From contig JAKAEB010000001.1 of NCBI GenBank assembly GCA_021818445.1, positions 16,664-80,663 on the forward strand: a DNA stretch of 64,000 nt. Reading direction: 5' to 3'. Position 1 is the stretch's first letter, and each line of letters starts with the position of its first letter. The translations under genes and the position numbers were made by a program. The notes below the pieces were generated by a model, which ran no database searches, was not told where the DNA came from, and saw nothing but the letters and a program-made list of their open reading frames with translations. Origin of the DNA: Planctomycetota bacterium (lineage in GTDB: Bacteria > Planctomycetota > Phycisphaerae > WQYP01). This document shows, piece by piece, positions 2,706 to 47,343 of this stretch.

Positions 2706-4829
2706 TTATCTTTGGACTGGACGCGACGGCCCGCCGGAAGGGATGGTGCTCTTCCGTACGGCCTTGCTTTTAGCGGCCAGCCATTTCGCCATTTTCTGCT
2801 GGGCCGCCGCTTGGCGCAGATGACCGAGCTTTTTCAGCACTGCCGAGAGTGCCACATGAATCACCGGTGTGTCTGGTGCGACTTTTTCCGCCAATTCCAA
2901 CTGCTGAAGTGCCGCAGCGTATTGACCAAGTGTATAAAGGCACTGCGCATAGGATACGTGTCCGGGCACAAATTGCGGCGACACCTCCACCACCCGCCGG
3001 AAGTAGACGAGGGCCTTGTGTCCGTGCCCGAGTCCCACCAGTGTCATCGCCATGCGGTAATTCGCTTTGGTGTTGTGCGGCTCGATCCGCGTGGTAAGTG
3101 CAAACTGCCCGGCGGCCGCGGGAAGATTTCGCGCCATCAAGTCAAATTTACCAAGCTGATAGTGAATGGCCGCCGAATCCGGCAGCACCTCAACGCCACG
3201 GATTAAATCCTGGTACGCCATCCGCCAATCCTTATGGTCTTCGTACCATTTCACCAGTGCAAGGATCAATGTCGGTTGCTGCGGATCGACCTCCAGCGAG
3301 CGGCGATAATAAGGCATGGCTTTGGCCGGTTCGTGGTAATAGTGGTTATACATATCGCCAAGATCGGTATTCACCGTGGGGTCCTGTTTATCTGACAGCA
3401 GCCAAGCCTTGTGCAAAAGCGCCATACCCTCGTCCGGATGGTGATGTTTAATATCATAAATGGCAACGTTATCCATGGCGGCGAATGCCTGCGGGTTGTA
3501 CTTTAAATTGTGCGTCCAGAGATGTATGGATGGCAAATAGACATCAGCTTGCTTCAAAGTGACGGGTAGCAATGCCAGCACCACACATCCTGCGAGAACC
3601 GCGCCTCCAATATTCTGCCCACGTGTGGAGACCGTTCCCGCCGAGGCCTGCATCTTACGGAGAAGAAACTCGCCACATCCGACAAATAATGCAAATAGGC
3701 CGATGCAGGGGATGTATTGGTAATGGTCGGCCACAAAGGTGTACGTTTCCGTGTAGAAAGAGGCAAACCCCAGCACCGGTGAAATGGTCAGGCCGTAAAA
3801 AGCGATAGCACAAAACGGCCCGCGACCAATGCGGCGTGAAAGCGCCAGCAGCGTCAATGGAACGGCAATAGCCCCAATAATCGCCAGTAAGTCCATGCCG
3901 GAAAAATGTTGAATGTCCCAGCGGTGATAGATCGCCAACAAGGGGTGGGGCCAAAGCAATTTTGCCGGGTAAAACCATAAATCGCGTGCTGCGATAATCA
4001 GGTGCTGGGCGACGGTAAAGTGAAATCGCGATCCGGCCGCATGCACCTTTACGTGCTCAATGTAGATGGTCACCATCCCCATCGCCAAACCGACCGCAAA
4101 CCAGGGTACCAGCGACCACCCTTGATACCGCCGTACCGATCCACGCTTCCACCATGTTATCACCCACAATACCGCTGGTAGCGTGCAGGCGTCGGTCTTG
4201 GCCAGCAAAGCGAGCACAAAGGCTAAGCTGCCGGCGAAAAAATATTTCCACTCGCCCGCTGCCGTTGATTCCGGATCGTCCAGACGGGCAAAGCGTATCC
4301 ACGCCCCGGCGGCGAAGAACACAAAAAATGCTGAAAGCAGGTTTTTCTGCTCCGTCACCCAAGCCACCGTCTCCACCTGAACCGGATGAATGGCAAAAAG
4401 CGCAGCTACCAGCCATGCGCCCGGTACACGCAGCATGCGCAATATCCGCCAAAGAATCAGCGCGTCCACCATTTGCAGAATAATATTGGCGAGGTGATAC
4501 CCCAGTGGGGCAAACCCCCATAACTGATGCTCAATCCAAAATGCGGTAAATACCAGCGGGTAGTATTGAAGTGATTTGGAAGGCTCAAACCAGATGTCCC
4601 ACAATCCATGCGGCGCGGTCATCAACGGGTTGTGCACCACCCAGCCGCCATCGTCCCAGATATATCCCGCCTTGATCAGCGGTAGATATGCAACGACTGT
4701 TAGCAGGGCCAGCAGAGTGCCGGCGATCAGGTCATTTCGTCGGCTGACGGGAGGCAAATCTCGATGGGTCATAGGATGTACTTTCCACGCAATTGCGTCC
4801 GCAAGCAAGTGCACAGGTCGAATTGACAC
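2706..4829 (-). CDS. Multi-pass membrane protein with C-terminal TPR repeats (TMTC/PMT_2-like GT-C fold candidate, DUF1736-type)
   Basis: 707 aa. N-terminal YIWDDGGWVVHNP motif followed by ~10 predicted TM helices. C-terminal ~250 aa of TPR-like repeats. GGAG RBS sits ~10 nt upstream of the 4829 start. Confidence 0.6.
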   Translation of the reverse strand: MSIRPVHLLADAIAWKVHPMTHRDLPPVSRRNDLIAGTLLALLTVVAYLPLIKAGYIWDDGGWVVHNPLMTAPHGLWDIWFEPSKSLQYYPLVFTAFWIEHQLWGFAPLGYHLANIILQMVDALILWRILRMLRVPGAWLVAALFAIHPVQVETVAWVTEQKNLLSAFFVFFAAGAWIRFARLDDPESTAAGEWKYFFAGSLAFVLALLAKTDACTLPAVLWVITWWKRGSVRRYQGWSLVPWFAVGLAMGMVTIYIEHVKVHAAGSRFHFTVAQHLIIAARDLWFYPAKLLWPHPLLAIYHRWDIQHFSGMDLLAIIGAIAVPLTLLALSRRIGRGPFCAIAFYGLTISPVLGFASFYTETYTFVADHYQYIPCIGLFALFVGCGEFLLRKMQASAGTVSTRGQNIGGAVLAGCVVLALLPVTLKQADVYLPSIHLWTHNLKYNPQAFAAMDNVAIYDIKHHHPDEGMALLHKAWLLSDKQDPTVNTDLGDMYNHYYHEPAKAMPYYRRSLEVDPQQPTLILALVKWYEDHKDWRMAYQDLIRGVEVLPDSAAIHYQLGKFDLMARNLPAAAGQFALTTRIEPHNTKANYRMAMTLVGLGHGHKALVYFRRVVEVSPQFVPGHVSYAQCLYTLGQYAAALQQLELAEKVAPDTPVIHVALSAVLKKLGHLRQAAAQQKMAKWLAAKSKAVRKSTIPSGGPSRPVQR

Positions 4830-5224
4830 CCGCGCTTCTCCGAAAGCACGCGCTACCGGACATTACAACAAGGATAGAGCAAAGTTCGCCCTTCCGCACC
4901 GTTGGCTTCTACACCTCAGGAGCCTGTCCGAGGAATAACATGGGCTGCGATGGCATGGATTTTGGCGGGCATCAAGAAGCGGTGACGGGACCGTATCGGG
5001 CGATACGCCGCGGAGGCTTCGCCGCAGAGGCCAGGTGAAACACCCCCCGTCCGGAGGATGCTAAGACCCACTCGGTCGGCGGAGTATCGGTTCGCTGGCA
5101 GTCGGCAAAATCGCTGCGGCGGAAAATCCGAGGCCGCATGAAAATTGCACTGCCAGGGGATATACATATACAGCACGCGTTTGATAAACTGCGTGTTGTT
5201 CTCATCAATAGATATCCATGTAAT

Positions 5225-5461
5225 GACGTGAACTCGGGATAAGAAATTCCGTAGCTTTGTTTATTCAAGTTGTTATATTCACCGTGGCACAGACATTCCT
5301 GTCTGTGACGCTTTATTCTGCGCTAAATCACAGGCAAGAATGCCTGTGTCACCTTGGTTAACGTGAATTCTGGATAGACCTTTTCGACGGCCGCTCGCCG
5401 GCTGGTTGCTTAAAAAATCGCCAGAAATATTTGTTAACCATGACTTCTTATCCCGAACTCA
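5225..5461 (+). mobile_element. MITE-like 237-bp element, copy A (TIR TGAACTCGGGATAAGAAAT / ACTTCTTATCCCGAACTCA)
   Basis: About 90% identical to 46164..46400, same orientation. Imperfect terminal inverted repeats ~19 bp. Internal hairpins CACAGACA-ttcc-TGTCTGTG (5288..5307) and CACAGGCA-agaa-TGCCTGTG (5329..5348). Intergenic position. Confidence 0.55.
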
Positions 5462-5547
5462 GGTATTTAATGGTATACGCCAAGTACCGTACGGCTTGTG
5501 GAGGGGTGCCCAATAAACCTCGGAAGGATGGACTATCTGCCGCCCCG

Positions 5548-27211: not shown

Positions 27212-27988
27212 TCATTCGATGGCTGCGGTTTTGCCTGCAGCATCGGCGGCGGGGGCCATGGGGCGCAGAAGCGTGGCGATCTTGGCGTCAAGCGGTGCCC
27301 GCCTCGCAAGGTAAGGCCTTGCCACAGTCCATGCGACCAACGCCACCGCCGGGCAAAGGAACCAAAGTCCCCCCGAGAAAGCCACCCTCTGCGTAAGTAC
27401 CGAAAATACCACAAGCAAACCGTCCGCATATTCTACCGCTTTCGAGGTGGCACCAATCCAGCAGGCATCCGGTGTCCCCGACGGGCCGCTTGCCTCGATA
27501 ATCACTGCGGACGCACCCTTATCGTACCGAGTGGCGGATAGAACAAAATACTGCTTCCTGTCGCCCCGAACCACGAAGCCCGCGACCGGGAACCGATACC
27601 CGCTCGCCGGCCCGAATCCCTCTTCTGCAGCCAGAAGGGCGACCTTTTCGGCCGGCAGCGCGACCGCGACGCCCCTCGGCGTGTCATGCAACAGTCCCAA
27701 GGCTCGGATGGGGGCTACCGCGTCGCGGCCCCAACGCCTCGCAACGAGTACCGCGAGGAAAACCAGGCAACTCAATATTCCGATTAACGACCAGAATCCC
27801 TCCACCCAGAGACGGCCGTACAGCAGGGCCCCCGAGTTGTATAAGCCGTCGAAGACTTCAAAGAGCGTAACCGCAACGGCACCACCGCACAAAGACTCGA
27901 TACATACGTTAGAAAACCGAGCGAGCGTCCAATCGAATTTACTGCGTCTGACAAAAATTGGCTGCGATGCAACACCAGTGCCGCTCAT
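27212..27988 (-). CDS. Candidate immunity protein (integral membrane) cognate to the upstream RHS-CT toxin
   Basis: Start MSGTGVASQPIF... overlaps the toxin stop (CCATGA, with ATG nested in TGA). ~258 aa with several hydrophobic helices. Assignment is by position only. Confidence 0.45.
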   Translation of the reverse strand: MSGTGVASQPIFVRRSKFDWTLARFSNVCIESLCGGAVAVTLFEVFDGLYNSGALLYGRLWVEGFWSLIGILSCLVFLAVLVARRWGRDAVAPIRALGLLHDTPRGVAVALPAEKVALLAAEEGFGPASGYRFPVAGFVVRGDRKQYFVLSATRYDKGASAVIIEASGPSGTPDACWIGATSKAVEYADGLLVVFSVLTQRVAFSGGLWFLCPAVALVAWTVARPYLARRAPLDAKIATLLRPMAPAADAAGKTAAIE

Positions 27989-28731
27989 GGTACCACCACC
28001 GGCTGTGTGCCAACCCAAGTTGGCCCGTAAACCCTTATCCATTTGGTCTGATAGGGATTGCCGTCGAGGGCCCAGTCGACCGCATCGGTTGCCCCCTCGC
28101 TGGCCGCCGCACCCACGGCCAGGCTCTGTACGGGATTTTTTGTTAAAAGGCCCGTCCCGGCGGCTGCGGCCGTTCCGACAACCATTCCGACGGCGTGCGT
28201 AAACCAAGCAGGTGGATTCTCACCCCGTTCAACCTGCGCCGTGGGTGCGTACACAGGAAGTCCTATTTTTACGCAATGCCCGTCCACCATCACTTTATGG
28301 ATGCCGGTGTAGCCGACCTTTTCCCTGCCCGTCGCGCCCGTGAAATGCCACCCGCCAGCGAGTAATGGACCGAGTACGGCACCGCCAACCCCATCGTAGG
28401 GCGGTGGGAGGTTGGTCGGATAATTCCCCGCGTTTCGGCCAGAGTATTGCTGCAACAGAGCCTGCGTTTGGGGCGAAAGTGGCGGAGGCGGTGGATACAA
28501 GTTCGGATTGCCGCCGCCCAACCCGGAGGCATCTGCCTTCCCCACCGGGCTGCTTTGGACGCATTCGTAAAGATTGATTCCGCCTTGGTAGCCGATCGGG
28601 TCGCGGGTAAGCCACCTGCCCAGATGCGCGGCATAATACCGGTTCCGCACATAATAATTCTGCGTTTCGGCATCGGCGTTGTAGCTGCTACCGCCCGTGG
28701 GAGTTTTATTTTCAGCAATTGCGACCATCAA
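27985..28731 (-). CDS. Orphan RHS repeat-associated core tail + C-terminal polymorphic toxin domain (glycine-zipper-rich)
   Basis: Starts inside the RHS core terminus: YYVRNRYYAAHLGRWLTRDPIGYQGGINLYECVQSSPVGKADASGL, matching RYYDPxxGRFxxxDPIGxxGGxNLYxY...DPxGL. Followed by an unrelated ~170-aa tail containing VGMVVGTAAAAGTGLL. No RHS repeats upstream. Confidence 0.7.
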   Translation of the reverse strand: MMVAIAENKTPTGGSSYNADAETQNYYVRNRYYAAHLGRWLTRDPIGYQGGINLYECVQSSPVGKADASGLGGGNPNLYPPPPPLSPQTQALLQQYSGRNAGNYPTNLPPPYDGVGGAVLGPLLAGGWHFTGATGREKVGYTGIHKVMVDGHCVKIGLPVYAPTAQVERGENPPAWFTHAVGMVVGTAAAAGTGLLTKNPVQSLAVGAAASEGATDAVDWALDGNPYQTKWIRVYGPTWVGTQPVVVP

Positions 28732-29050
28732 TCGGCCTCAAAACTGGAATCAACAACTGGCAACATAACGCGCGGGGGTTCGGGCTGCAAGGAGGGCACA
28801 GCGATATTTCGCACAGGAATGCGTCATTCGTTAGCGCGCCGGGACAAGCCCGGCGGCTCGCTGGGCCATTCCCATACCGAAAGTTTTAACTGTTAACTTT
28901 GCGAATCTCGCGGTGAGGAAAAGGAGTTTGCACCGCCGGGTGCGCCGAGAGCGCGAAGATTTGCGAATCTGATTATTTCGTATTTGTTAATTCTCTCCGC
29001 GGCTCCGAGGCTCTGTGCGAGATATAAAAACCTCTCTGTGTGACATAATG

Positions 29051-29088
29051 CATCATGCCGATGGCATGATGATGTTTGTTGTTTTTTT
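29051..29088 (+). terminator. Perfect 9-bp hairpin (CATCATGCC-gat-GGCATGATG) + T-rich tail, repeat copy 1
   Basis: catcatgccgatggcatgatgatgtttgttgttttttt. Reads as an intrinsic terminator on the plus strand. On the minus strand a second hairpin (GCCACA-acctc-TGTGGC) plus TCTTTTTCTCT lies 15 nt away. Confidence 0.45.
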
Positions 29089-29363
29089 AGCGCGCAGAGA
29101 AAAAGAGCCACAGAGGTTGTGGCACTGGACAAATCTCGCAATATTGGCCGCATCACGACAATTGGGCAGGTCCATATCCCGTATGCTTGGCGTTTCTTGG
29201 CGTCCTCCGCGCCCTTCGCGGTGAATCAGGGTAATTATTTGCACCGCCGGGAGCGCCAAGAACGCGAGGACTTGCGAAACTGATTATTTTGTATTTGTTA
29301 ATTCTCTCCGTGCCTCCGAGTCTCTGCGCGAGATCGTAACACTTCCCTGTGCAAGTAAAGGTA

Positions 29364-29401
29364 TCATGCCGATGGCATGATGATGCTTGTTGTTTGTTTT
29401 T
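29364..29401 (+). terminator. Same hairpin/T-tail motif in repeat copy 2
   Basis: atcatgccgatggcatgatgatgcttgttgtttgttttt. Confidence 0.4.
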
Positions 29402-29696
29402 AGCGCACAGAGAAAAGAGCCACAGAGGCTGCGCCACCGTATCAAACACGATCCCTTGGCCGAAGCATCCCAATTGGGCATCTCCGGGCAAGCCCGCGGC
29501 CATGTATTTCTGGCGAGCGAGACCGGTGATTGGGCGCAGCGCGGGTACTTTTGGTGTGACGTATCCAGCCCTGAAAAAAACGCTTAGCACATTGCGGCAC
29601 CAACTGAACCCCTAAAATGTTATCGATGTTCACTCCGGGTTGATTCAGCCCGATTTCCGTCTTGACCCTGTCTGCCCGCATTGATATAGTCACCGG

Positions 29697-30131
29697 ATGG
29701 GCATTGTTCGGATGGCTTTTATCCCCCTATTGATTTTGATCGTGGCTGTCGCGCCGATATTCTGCCCTTGCCATGATATGGTCATCGGCCTGATAAGGGC
29801 CCCTGGAGCTACCTCAATTTCTGCCTGCCAGTGTGCCCCTGGGCCTGGTGTGGCGTCGCGGTATCTGCCTAAGCAGAGGCCGACAGGCCTGTACGGAATA
29901 TCGTGCGGGCGCAATTCTGAGCCGATGTGCCTTGATCACCTGTTCAAAGGCGTGTTGCGCGACTCTGCCACCACCATCTGCAACCATTTCGGGCATTCAT
30001 TCGCCGCCTGCTTAACGGCCTTGAGGGGCGTGACAGGTGCGGCTGTATTTGCCACCAGTCCACAGCGGTACTTCACTGCCGATGCCGGCGCAAAAACACT
30101 GCTGCGCCAGCGTTGCGCCCTGATTATTTAA
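29697..30131 (+). CDS. Hypothetical Cys-rich small protein with N-terminal hydrophobic segment
   Basis: 144-aa ORF with 9 Cys, MGIVRMAFIPLLILIVAVAPIF... Weak RBS. No recognisable family. Confidence 0.25.
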   Translation: MGIVRMAFIPLLILIVAVAPIFCPCHDMVIGLIRAPGATSISACQCAPGPGVASRYLPKQRPTGLYGISCGRNSEPMCLDHLFKGVLRDSATTICNHFGHSFAACLTALRGVTGAAVFATSPQRYFTADAGAKTLLRQRCALII

Positions 30132-30227
30132 TAACCTGATCAAATCACCTCGCCCCGGTTGCCGGAATGCTGCGCCTTCTATGGTGCAGCGGCTTGAGCG
30201 TCTGTTATTTATCAGGAGTTGCTTCAT

Positions 30228-30560
30228 ATGTTGCGTCAATTATTTCCTTTTGCCCTGCTGGCTCTGTCTCTCGCCGGCTGTGCGCACGTGCCCACGATTG
30301 CGCCCGTGGCTATGGATAACCCGGCCAATCCCTCGGCCGCGGTCGGCCCGGCATTTCCAGGAACGGATTTTCTGAATGTGGCGGCCGCCGTACAGGAATC
30401 CAATCCAATTGCGGTTACAGCCGGTGCCAATTTACCTGGGGCACCACCATCGGTTCATGCGGGTAAAAAAACTTTACCAACTGCGACCGATGACATGCAC
30501 GGTATGAACATGCCGGGAATGAAAATGAATACGTCTAAAAATATGGGGGGCAAACAATGA
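30228..30560 (+). CDS. Met-rich periplasmic lipoprotein (copper-binding candidate)
   Basis: MLRQLFPFALLALSLAGC lipobox. C-terminal MHGMNMPGMKMN Met-rich motif. AGGAG RBS. Start overlaps the downstream OMF gene (ATGA). Confidence 0.55.
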   Translation: MLRQLFPFALLALSLAGCAHVPTIAPVAMDNPANPSAAVGPAFPGTDFLNVAAAVQESNPIAVTAGANLPGAPPSVHAGKKTLPTATDDMHGMNMPGMKMNTSKNMGGKQ

Positions 30561-46084: not shown

Positions 46085-46163
46085 CCGAAAACCTGTTCCG
46101 GCGCAAGGCCACTTGCACATACCGACCGAGATTACTTTTGCGTAGCAGAGTTTGGTTTATCGG

Positions 46164-46400
46164 GACGTGAATTCGGGATTAGGAATTCCGTAGCTCTGTT
46201 TATCCAAGTTGCTATGTTCATCGTGGCACAGACATTCCTGTCTGTGCCGCTGTATTCCGGGCTAAATCACAGGCAAGAATGCCTGTGTCACCTTGGTTAG
46301 CGTGAATTCCGGATAAGCCCTTTCGCCGGCCGCTCGACGGCTGATTGCTTGAAACATCGCCAGAAACATTTGTTAACCATGACTTCTTATCCCGAAATCA
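46164..46400 (+). mobile_element. MITE-like 237-bp element, copy B
   Basis: Aligns end-to-end with 5225..5461 at ~90% identity. Both hairpins are conserved: cacagacattcctgtctgtg and cacaggcaagaatgcctgtg. TIRs are tgaattcgggattaggaat and acttcttatcccgaaatca. Lies between convergent genes. Confidence 0.55.
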
Positions 46401-46404
46401 CTTT

Positions 46405-47343
46405 CTATCGGGGGATGTACCCGCGCTGCCGCAGCCACTGAACACACGCCGCTGGCCATTGCACAGATGCTGTTCCCGGTACACCCAGCCCGAAGCCATG
46501 TTTTCCTGTCGCATACACATGTAATACCGCAGGGATGTGTTCACGTTTAAGCGCACGATAAAAACTGAAGCTGTTTTCCAGCGGGACGATGGGATCATTA
46601 CGTGCCACGCAAATAAATGCGGGTGGTGTCAGTTTGGTCACCATTAAATTGGCCGAAAAGTATTTCTCCACTCCCAGCGGACAATGCTCGCCCAGCAGCG
46701 CATTATGCGATCCCGGATGTGTAATACCCGGTATCATGGAAATAACTGGATAGCCAAGAATAAGAAAATCTGGGCGTGTGCTCAAGCGATCAATGCGGCG
46801 CGGGGCGTTCGGGTTGCCCGGCAAAAAAAGCGTGCCCGCCATTGCCGCCACATGGCCGCCGGCCGAAAATCCCGCCACTCCAACATCATTGGGATTGATG
46901 TGCCATGCGTGGGCATTGGCACGCACAATCTGCACAGCCCGGCGCACATCCTGCAAAGGCCACGGCACACCACTCGGTGGCAGCTTGCCATTGGGCAAGC
47001 GATAATTAAGTACAAAGGCCGACACACCCAGTTTGTTAAGCCATTGGGCAATGGCATATCCTTCGTGATGAACTGCCTCGTAAACGTACCCACCGCCCGG
47101 GCAGATCACCACCGCACAACCATTGGCGTGTTGACGGCCGACCAGGTATTCGGTCAGGGTGGGCCATTTATGCAACTTCCACGCGCGCTGATCCATCGGC
47201 ACTTTAAGGTGCGGCCAAACTGGAATGACCTTGGCATCAGGTTTGCGACGGGGGGCAAACCACGCGGGCATTTTCGCCACGCCGCTGGTGGCTATTCCAC
47301 CAATCACAAATGCCGCGAGGATGAAATGTGACAGCTCTTTCAT
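46405..47343 (-). CDS. Secreted alpha/beta hydrolase (esterase/lipase-type, Ser-His-Asp)
   Basis: Signal peptide MKELSHFILAAFVIGGIATSGVA. HGGG-like ICPGGGY oxyanion motif. Nucleophile elbow GFSAGGH. Confidence 0.7.
   Translation of the reverse strand: MKELSHFILAAFVIGGIATSGVAKMPAWFAPRRKPDAKVIPVWPHLKVPMDQRAWKLHKWPTLTEYLVGRQHANGCAVVICPGGGYVYEAVHHEGYAIAQWLNKLGVSAFVLNYRLPNGKLPPSGVPWPLQDVRRAVQIVRANAHAWHINPNDVGVAGFSAGGHVAAMAGTLFLPGNPNAPRRIDRLSTRPDFLILGYPVISMIPGITHPGSHNALLGEHCPLGVEKYFSANLMVTKLTPPAFICVARNDPIVPLENSFSFYRALKREHIPAVLHVYATGKHGFGLGVPGTASVQWPAACVQWLRQRGYIPR

Follow-up and report, generated by a model that had tools for sequence, protein, structure and literature searches.

The window analyzed here, a 64,000-nucleotide stretch from the genome of an uncultured member of the Phycisphaerae (Planctomycetota; contig JAKAEB010000001.1 of assembly GCA_021818445.1), contains two copies of a noncoding 239-bp unit. 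This unit is probably a non-autonomous DNA transposon, i.e., a MITE (a miniature transposable element with inverted repeats), which carries as its cargo a pair of inverted hairpins of the repetitive extragenic palindrome (REP) type. MITEs and REP hairpins have each been described before; the novelty lies in the individual family found here, in its structure with three terminal inverted repeats (TIRs) and in the combination of a MITE with a REP doublet. The initial annotation of the window had proposed a MITE-like element mobilized in trans, a proposal which is now supported by the TIRs, by short direct repeats flanking each copy, by stop codons in all reading frames and by the unrelated flanks of the two copies. 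The finding adds a MITE family to the Phycisphaerae, for which we know of almost no described mobile-element biology, and provides a concrete TIR transposon carrying a REP doublet, by means of which the spread of REP hairpins could be independent of a tyrosine transposase of their own.

Structure and borders of the element

A direct-repeat family of 237 nt (positions 5225-5461 and 46164-46400) is the sole long dispersed repeat in the 64-kb window. As originally described, its two members lie about 41 kb apart in the same orientation and share 90% identity, and both the repeat search and pairwise alignment bear this out. In the alignment, the similarity of copies A and B begins and ends abruptly, and the sequence on either side is unrelated. 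The refined unit measures 239 bp (Table 1), with 213 of 239 positions identical between the copies; the G at 5225 and 46164 is part of a flanking direct repeat and lies outside the element. The unit has no coding capacity, with stop codons in all six frames, and gene callers called no open reading frames (ORFs) in it, even at contig edges. Its GC content is 44-48%, compared to 55% for the window.

The TIRs are 20-22 bp in length (ACGTGAAYTCGGGATAAGAA), and the two ends match at 18 of 24 positions in copy A and at 17 of 24 in copy B. The imperfect inverted repeats of ~19 bp noted initially are real, yet the element ends 3 nt further outward, past the region in which the copies are similar, and a third, internal copy of the TIR had been missed. 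The TIR 20-mer, allowing up to three mismatches, has four matches against zero expected, and all six TIR-like sites in the 64 kb fall within the two copies. In copy A, the internal TIR and the right TIR (5445-5464) bound a "mini-MITE" of ~104 bp, such that the right-hand 104 bp of the element are TIR-bounded in their own right; this part also holds the pairing TGGTTAAC/GTTAACCA. The left-hand 135 bp consist of a TIR, 38 nt, the hairpin pair and the motif TTGGTTA.

The interpretation as a MITE is strengthened by the fact that each copy is bracketed by its own imperfect direct repeat of 8-9 bp. Putative target-site duplications, as anticipated for such an element, are seen at both copies (7/8 and 8/9 matches), where they abut the extended TIRs; they are locus-specific and have the same offset from the TIR ends in both cases. 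Judged by random position pairs in the window, scored for matches of at least 7/8 at any of nine offsets, the chance of such a flanking repeat is 0.0053 per site, and ~3e-5 jointly for both copies. In copy B, the left repeat has TAA where the right repeat has TAG, the stop codon of a hydrolase gene, and this is what a duplicated target that drifted later would look like. Duplications of 8-9 bp are the mark of staggered cutting by a DDE-type transposase, whereas transposition by Y1/HUH enzymes (IS200/IS605 and the REP-associated tyrosine transposases, RAYTs) leaves, to our knowledge, no target duplication. A transposase encoded elsewhere, presumably of the DDE type because of these repeats, would recognize the ~20-bp TIRs and insert the element via cuts staggered by 8-9 bp, yielding the short direct repeats around both copies.

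Table 1. Features of copies A and B of the 239-bp element (window coordinates)
Feature	Position	Strand	Basis or remark
Copy A, whole element (probable MITE)	5226..5464	+	alignment, repeat search; stops in six frames; GC 44%
Copy A, left flanking direct repeat ATGTAATG, putative target-site duplication	5218..5225		7/8 match to ATTTAATG
Copy A, right flanking direct repeat ATTTAATG	5465..5472		abuts TIR
Copy A, left TIR ACGTGAACTCGGGATAAGAA	5226..5245	+	inverted-repeat alignment
Copy A, internal third TIR ACGTGAATTCTGGATAGACC	5361..5380	+	direct to left TIR, inverted to right TIR
Copy A, right TIR, reverse complement ACCTGAGTTCGGGATAAGAA	5445..5464	-	inverted-repeat alignment
Copy A, REP unit 1, tag GTGG and hairpin CACAGACA-TTCC-TGTCTGTG	5284..5307	+	same unit as in other-phylum loci
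Copy A, doublet spacer, 21 nt	5308..5328	+	holds all 4 A/B differences of the doublet
Copy A, REP unit 2, inverted, hairpin and TCACC (GGTGA tag on minus strand)	5329..5353	-	hairpin pattern, other-phylum loci
Copy B, whole element	46165..46403	+	alignment, repeat search; same sequence in all same-species contigs
Copy B, left flanking direct repeat TTTATCGGG	46156..46164		8/9 match to TCTATCGGG
Copy B, right flanking direct repeat TCTATCGGG	46404..46412		holds hydrolase TAG stop (46405-46407, minus) and last two codons
Copy B, left TIR ACGTGAATTCGGGATTAGGA	46165..46184	+	inverted-repeat alignment
Copy B, internal third TIR GCGTGAATTCCGGATAAGCC	46300..46319	+	direct to left end, inverted to right end
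Copy B, right TIR, reverse complement AAGTGATTTCGGGATAAGAA	46384..46403	-	inverted-repeat alignment
Copy B, REP doublet	46223..46292	+	REP1 46223-46246, spacer, REP2 46268-46292

The REP doublet inside the element

The two near-identical stem-loops that had been recognized within the repeat are present exactly as described in both copies: hairpin 1 (CACAGACA-TTCC-TGTCTGTG) at 5288-5307 and 46227-46246, and hairpin 2 (CACAGGCA-AGAA-TGCCTGTG) at 5329-5348 and 46268-46287. Both stems are 8 bp long, and their sixth position is an A-T pair in one hairpin and a G-C pair in the other. Together with their tags, the units read GTGG-CACAGACATTCCTGTCTGTG and, on the minus strand, GGTGA-CACAGGCATTCTTGCCTGTG. 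The longer pairing in which they were thought to be nested, GTGGCACAG...CTGTGTCAC, is likewise found, with 25-nt arms of 84% complementarity, and forms part of the predicted minimum-free-energy fold on both strands. A degenerate version of the hairpin pattern has four matches in the 64 kb, as opposed to 0.08 expected, all of which are within the two copies.

Over the 49 nt of tags and hairpins, copies A and B are the same, compared to 26 differences in the other 190 nt, 4 of which are in the doublet spacer (p ~0.003 by our own hypergeometric estimate), and this suggests that the hairpins are under constraint or have been homogenized. Neither solo REPs nor further doublets occur in the 64-kb window, which also contains no Y1 domain or RAYT, and free REPs in high copy number, as is usual for REP and REPIN families, are found neither in the 64 kb nor at loci of four related species. 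Since no other hairpins exist in the window or in the loci of the relatives, and since no Y1 domain is encoded in the window, the doublet in this lineage looks like cargo of the MITE rather than part of an active REP/RAYT system.

The hairpin family in other phyla and its RAYTs

A scan for ACAGGCANNNNTGCCTGTGTCACC, conducted with one genome per species, reveals the hairpin at no fewer than, i.e., at least, 110 loci. The matches listed derive from Planctomycetota, Verrucomicrobiota (many from Opitutus/Opitutales and Akkermansiaceae) and Acidobacteriota/Terriglobia, together with a few metagenome-assembled genomes (MAGs) of Hydrogenedentota and Victivallales. Among these listed matches, the unit takes the form GGTG[GA]-CACAG[GA]CA-TTCC-TG[CT]CTGTG, with GTGA, GTGG or GTAG as the tag, and most units are arranged as inverted pairs, whose tags point outward in 54 cases versus 10 in the other orientation, at a modal spacing of 15-29 nt; 29 of the 54 tag-outward pairs combine one A-T with one G-C stem variant. 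In the same set, stem position 6 is G-C in 155 hairpins, A-T in 56 and C-G in 14, and only 7 of 232 are non-Watson-Crick, such that the stem is kept by compensatory change (Watson-Crick in 225/232). The pair in the window (GTGG, A-stem, TTCC; 21-nt spacer; G-stem, AGAA, TCAC) is the commonest type among the matches listed. Covariation, for which an analysis had been proposed initially, is thus seen at stem position 6 across the loci of other genomes.

In five of these loci (designated L034, L004, L014, L024 and L010), a Y1_Tnp domain is located between arrays of the hairpin. These domains score 52-71 bits against the NCBIfam model NF047646, "REP-associated tyrosine transposase", versus 16-23 bits for IS200, and both their HUH motif (HVH) and their catalytic tyrosine are intact. 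Judging from sequence, such hairpin-RAYT-hairpin loci have the arrangement of a REPtron. Identical hairpins thus flank RAYTs in other phyla, and therefore the twin hairpins of the window are a REP doublet (REPIN-like) and not a feature invented by the 239-bp element. The doublet (element positions 59-132) is the sole part of the element that matches other genomes, and the remaining 169 bp are unique to the species. In this light, the alternative mentioned in the initial annotation, namely a REP or small RNA (sRNA) family, is appropriate as REP for the inner 70 bp only, and as sRNA it is without support. The presence of one REP hairpin, nearly unchanged, across at least three phyla, where it is tied to a RAYT, bears on the movement of REP/RAYT systems between lineages.

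Two further arrangements of the hairpin were observed in these genomes. The Planctomycetota MAG LL4.bin22 contains many mosaic noncoding repeats of 300-500 bp built around the same doublet, which is followed by a conserved "ttgggggtttgattgggcataatgaccgcagcgtgcagcc" module (loci L018, L019, L021, L027, L035, L049, L055, L063, L065, L066, L073, L075, L084-L086 and L094); larger repeats thus enclose this hairpin pair in a second manner as well. In addition, head-to-tail arrays of 3-8 REP hairpins with a strict period of 30 or 36 bp are found beside RAYT domains (L024:1050-1279, L107:21-285, L010:9-100 and 702-853, L088:210-337), and the stop-free frame of these arrays reads GDTGIPAC-like peptides.

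Gene setting and occurrence in related genomes

Both copies are intergenic, as had been stated, although copy B has a right flanking repeat that extends over the hydrolase stop codon. Copy A is located between the stop of a gene for a 234-aa protein (5548, minus) and the start of a TPR gene (4829, minus), whereas copy B separates an SDR gene (stop 46084) from an alpha/beta-hydrolase gene (stop codon 46405-46407), two genes whose 3' ends converge. The distance from the upstream stop codon to the element is 80-84 nt in both copies. Proteins identical to the products of the neighboring genes are encoded in three NCBI MAGs (GCA_027436235.1, GCA_027426495.1 and GCA_027436255.1) and in several ENA/Logan assemblies, and the homologues of these genes belong to Phycisphaerae.

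In every same-species contig and assembly examined, both copies are invariant, and therefore copies A and B are fixed rather than recent. Seven loci of four related species (four of 11-21 kb and three of 1.7-8.7 kb) contain neither the hairpins nor the element. One relative in which the gene order is conserved has an SDR-hydrolase spacer of 68 bp, versus 320 bp here, that lacks the element, although the two spacers are not alignable base by base; in another relative, the spacer consists of 355 bp of unrelated sequence. At locus A, the gene order is broken in two relatives, and a third (L135) has unrelated sequence of similar length. The search for an empty site yielded an element-free 68-bp spacer at locus B in one relative but no base-precise empty site, and an attempted reconstruction of such a site was discarded owing to an unconvincing alignment.

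As an observation in its own right, both of these intergenic sites are occupied in related Phycisphaerae species by different sequence, unrelated and 350-700 bp long (L120:10751-11106 and L135:2516-3220). These inserts are related neither to the element nor to each other, and several contigs of one related species break within the insert (L121, L122), which suggests that other repeat families occupy these intergenic sites in the relatives.

Indirect signs of further variants come from Logan contigs (k=31), which stop with positions 88-118 of copy B or start with positions 116-146 of copy A, each ending exactly 30 nt past a site at which A and B differ; the copies also differ at 94, 96 and 136. 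Sharing between A and B alone is insufficient to account for these ends, and a third sequence that shares B[89-119] and A[115-145] is therefore required. One contig (L142, Logan SRR13197296_403814) begins with ~75 nt corresponding to window 46331-46403, joined to the right flank of copy B, and has copy A alleles at element positions 173 and 180 and copy B alleles at 187, 191 and 203; it represents a strain variant, the result of sequence exchange among copies, or a path taken by the assembler via a third copy. From these data, either one or more additional copies or an exchange of sequence among the copies is indicated. As for the status of a family, then, two copies are seen directly and there are indirect signs of at least one more variant, but the term "family" is weakly shown. 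The element also accounts for the breaks in the organism's assemblies at both loci.

Weighing of the evidence and alternative explanations

Several observations weigh against the interpretation of the unit as a MITE. Only two copies are seen directly; they are fixed, with no sign of recent movement; and the flanking repeats are imperfect and of unequal length (8 bp at copy A, 9 bp at copy B). Alignment failed to give a clean empty site, the relatives being ~80% identical at the protein level and their intergenic DNA too diverged or rearranged. Moreover, the search for a transposase with matching TIRs, which would support mobilization in trans, was unsuccessful, as no parent insertion sequence or transposase bearing these TIRs was found in the window, in plasmids, in E. 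coli genomes, in JGI metagenomes or in IMG/VR. The scans of JGI metagenomes and IMG/VR were exact-pattern searches, in which the right-TIR 20-mer had no match in the former and the left-TIR pattern none in the latter, and no further copy of the 239-bp unit was detected in either. The single match in JGI metagenomes to the junction between REP2 and the internal TIR is located inside a coding region, without a hairpin, and was rejected as a chance hit. An enterobacterial element of the ERIC/YPAL type was also discarded, as neither 5,426 E. coli genomes nor 72,556 plasmids contain a match to the unit, and both the neighboring genes and the homologues of these genes are those of Phycisphaerae.

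The entire 239 bp could alternatively be a REP-based mosaic, resembling bacterial interspersed mosaic elements (BIMEs) or REPINs, which is spread by a RAYT/Y1 HUH transposase or by recombination; the outer inverted repeats would then be further palindromic modules and the flanking direct repeats a coincidence. The core of the element is indeed a genuine REP doublet, RAYTs in other genomes are flanked by these hairpins, the element can be described as three nested palindromic modules, and LL4.bin22 carries many 300-500-bp mosaic repeats around the same doublet. Di Nocera et al. (2013; PMC3733652) also describe RAYT genes flanked by long TIRs and moderately abundant families of TIR repeats. Yet the non-REP 169 bp have no counterpart in any REP-bearing genome sampled, neither solo REPs nor other doublets occur in the 64 kb or in the seven related-species loci, and no RAYT is encoded in the window. 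A Y1/HUH enzyme would, as far as we know, leave no target duplication, in conflict with the TIR-abutting direct repeats in both copies (joint ~3e-5). The unit also does not have the form of an IS200/IS605-derived palindrome-associated transposable element (PATE) or other RAYT-moved element, since TIRs and direct repeats are present and its hairpins are central instead of subterminal. We thus regard a mosaic origin of the whole unit as unlikely.

It is very improbable that the copies represent a duplicated functional RNA or regulatory module, such as an sRNA gene, a terminator or an mRNA-stabilizing 3' structure, which has been kept by selection. A very stable fold is predicted (z = -7.3 and -7.6; ~-7.5 on both strands), the hairpins are invariant against a drift of 14% in the remaining sequence, a stop codon is found 80-84 nt upstream of each copy, and copy A has one terminator-like site. 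In spite of these properties, Rfam 15 gives no matches at gathering thresholds and, with an E-value threshold, only sub-threshold noise from miRNA hairpins; a promoter-like site is present in neither copy and a terminator-like site is missing from copy B. Transcription from the upstream gene would yield the antisense strand of copy A but the sense strand of copy B, and both strands fold equally well, as expected of nested inverted repeats in DNA. An RNA gene would also not be expected to have TIRs and direct repeats at its flanks. Still less probable, to the point of being barely tenable, is a relic of segmental duplication, or of gene conversion involving a pair of intergenic regions. The two copies that are seen directly do share the same orientation at a distance of 41 kb, and L142, as a mosaic of A and B alleles, indicates that copies may exchange sequence. 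However, homologous flanking genes, which the initial annotation had named as the sign of a segmental duplication, are not found: the TPR and 234-aa proteins at copy A are unrelated to the SDR and hydrolase at copy B, which argues against such a duplication. There is also a sharp loss of similarity where the TIRs end, inverted repeats and locus-specific direct repeats mark the borders, and the ends of the Logan contigs require a third sequence.

Proposed origin of the element

For the preferred interpretation as a MITE, the internal third TIR suggests an origin by capture, in which a mini-MITE acquired a neighboring REP doublet. A unit of ~104 bp may have been located next to a resident doublet, and the use of a further TIR on the far side would have made the whole 239 bp the mobile unit. 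At present, the hairpins might conceivably contribute to 3'-end mRNA stabilization or to termination, because both copies are situated just downstream of genes. The MITE could also be a vehicle which carries a REP doublet into or around a genome without free REPs and possibly without a RAYT, which would connect two classes of mobile DNA whose enzymes are unrelated; more speculatively still, the near-identity of REPs across Planctomycetota, Verrucomicrobiota and Acidobacteriota might be owed to a horizontally spreading gene in which a RAYT is nested in a methyltransferase (see below). This combined scenario is a long shot, to which we attach a low probability.

Comparison with known systems

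Bacterial MITEs, as defined for Correia/NEMIS, RUP, ERIC, Nezha and IMU (Delihas 2011, PMC3184786), resemble the element in being shorter than 400 bp, with TIRs around a noncoding core, flanking direct repeats, a long stem-loop at the RNA level and an intergenic position near genes. The element accordingly falls in the MITE size range (about 70-400 bp), is without coding capacity, and has TIRs within 15-30 bp and a flanking duplication of its own at each copy. It has, as far as we know, no sequence similarity to the consensus sequences of the five named families (ERIC judged by eye), and it differs from bacterial MITEs in its internal third TIR and in its REP doublet, whose family is otherwise tied to another class of transposase. 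Like the BIMEs of E. coli, it is a mosaic of REP hairpins and other short conserved motifs, but BIMEs are not known to have TIRs or target duplications, and there is no sequence relation (no match in E. coli).

REPINs are reportedly moved by RAYTs in Pseudomonas fluorescens SBW25, as Bertels and Rainey are said to have proposed in 2011, with TnpA-REP as the E. coli counterpart. They are not known to have outer TIRs or a target-site duplication, and usually occur in tens to hundreds of copies with a cognate RAYT. The doublet described here is similar to a REPIN in its two inverted REPs with a short spacer, which can fold into one long hairpin, and in being noncoding; unlike REPINs, it is surrounded by outer TIRs and direct repeats, and neither a high copy number nor a cognate RAYT is seen.

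The closest relation to the hairpins themselves is with the GTAG-tagged REPs of the Planctomycetes-Verrucomicrobia-Chlamydiae (PVC) bacteria, for which Di Nocera et al. (2013; PMC3733652) report dimers and heterodimers, intragenic copies and an association with RAYTs (REPtrons). The families described there include GTAG-17 to GTAG-20 of Opitutus terrae, with GTAG replaced by GTGG in GTAG-20, and Rhodopirellula baltica is represented as well (PMC3733652). As described there, these REPs share with the present hairpins a stem of 6-9 bp that follows a GT[AG]G tag left unpaired, the formation of inverted dimers whose spacers measure 20-100 bp, sub-families set apart by complementary stem changes, frequent heterodimers, a location downstream of genes and the RAYT association; many of the hairpin matches listed also come from Opitutus/Opitutales MAGs. 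The literal hairpin sequence was found neither in the literature nor in the supplements of PMC3733652, and a match to a named GTAG family is thus only a possibility. In contrast to the PVC REPs, the doublet in the window is not free-standing but is present only inside the TIR-bounded 239-bp unit, with no solo REPs or RAYT.

A RAYT nested in a methyltransferase

Outside the window, a complete REP-RAYT-REP unit is located in frame within an Eco57I/MmeI-like N6-adenine methyltransferase, between its FYTP and DPAxGSG motifs (L014:2312-6253, plus strand; L024:2-3109, plus; L010:1-2199, minus; L004:672-4856, plus), and the HUH motif and tyrosine of the nested RAYT are intact. In L014, the insert comprises 259 residues which replace ~5 residues of an uninterrupted homologue (P0138). 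Members of this methyltransferase family usually have 1040-1090 aa, and a subgroup of 1286-1428 aa also contains PF01797, its members being called as single proteins. This long subgroup, with Y1_Tnp and methylase domains, is distributed in Planctomycetota, Verrucomicrobiota and Acidobacteriota, at identities down to 47% over 99% coverage, with one member annotated from Acidobacteria. No description of the RAYT-in-methyltransferase architecture was found in the literature searched; in a published survey of Y1 proteins, those of unexpected length were removed as presumed fusions or errors of annotation (PMC6006769). Speculatively, the combined protein could be an enzyme directed by REPs that does more than spread selfishly.

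Additional features of the window

The leader and start of the TPR gene beside copy A (window 4773-4990, minus; the gene begins at 4829) are 84% identical over 132 nt to those of the related species represented by L135, and are thus far better conserved than the remaining intergenic region. An inverted repeat (AATCAAGGGTGCGG/CCGTGCCCTTGATT, in the letters of L135) is conserved within this leader, with no match in Rfam; the leader may be regulatory.

Another repeat, unreported by Tandem Repeats Finder, consists of a ~250-bp segment at 28927-29173 and 29238-29485, with a spacing of ~311 bp and identities of 83% and 71% in two parts. It sits in a gene-poor stretch (28732-30556), with no convincing ORF in 1.8 kb, and adjoins an ORF (27985-28731, minus) that contains the RHS-core-like motif YYVRNRYY...DPIGYQGG.

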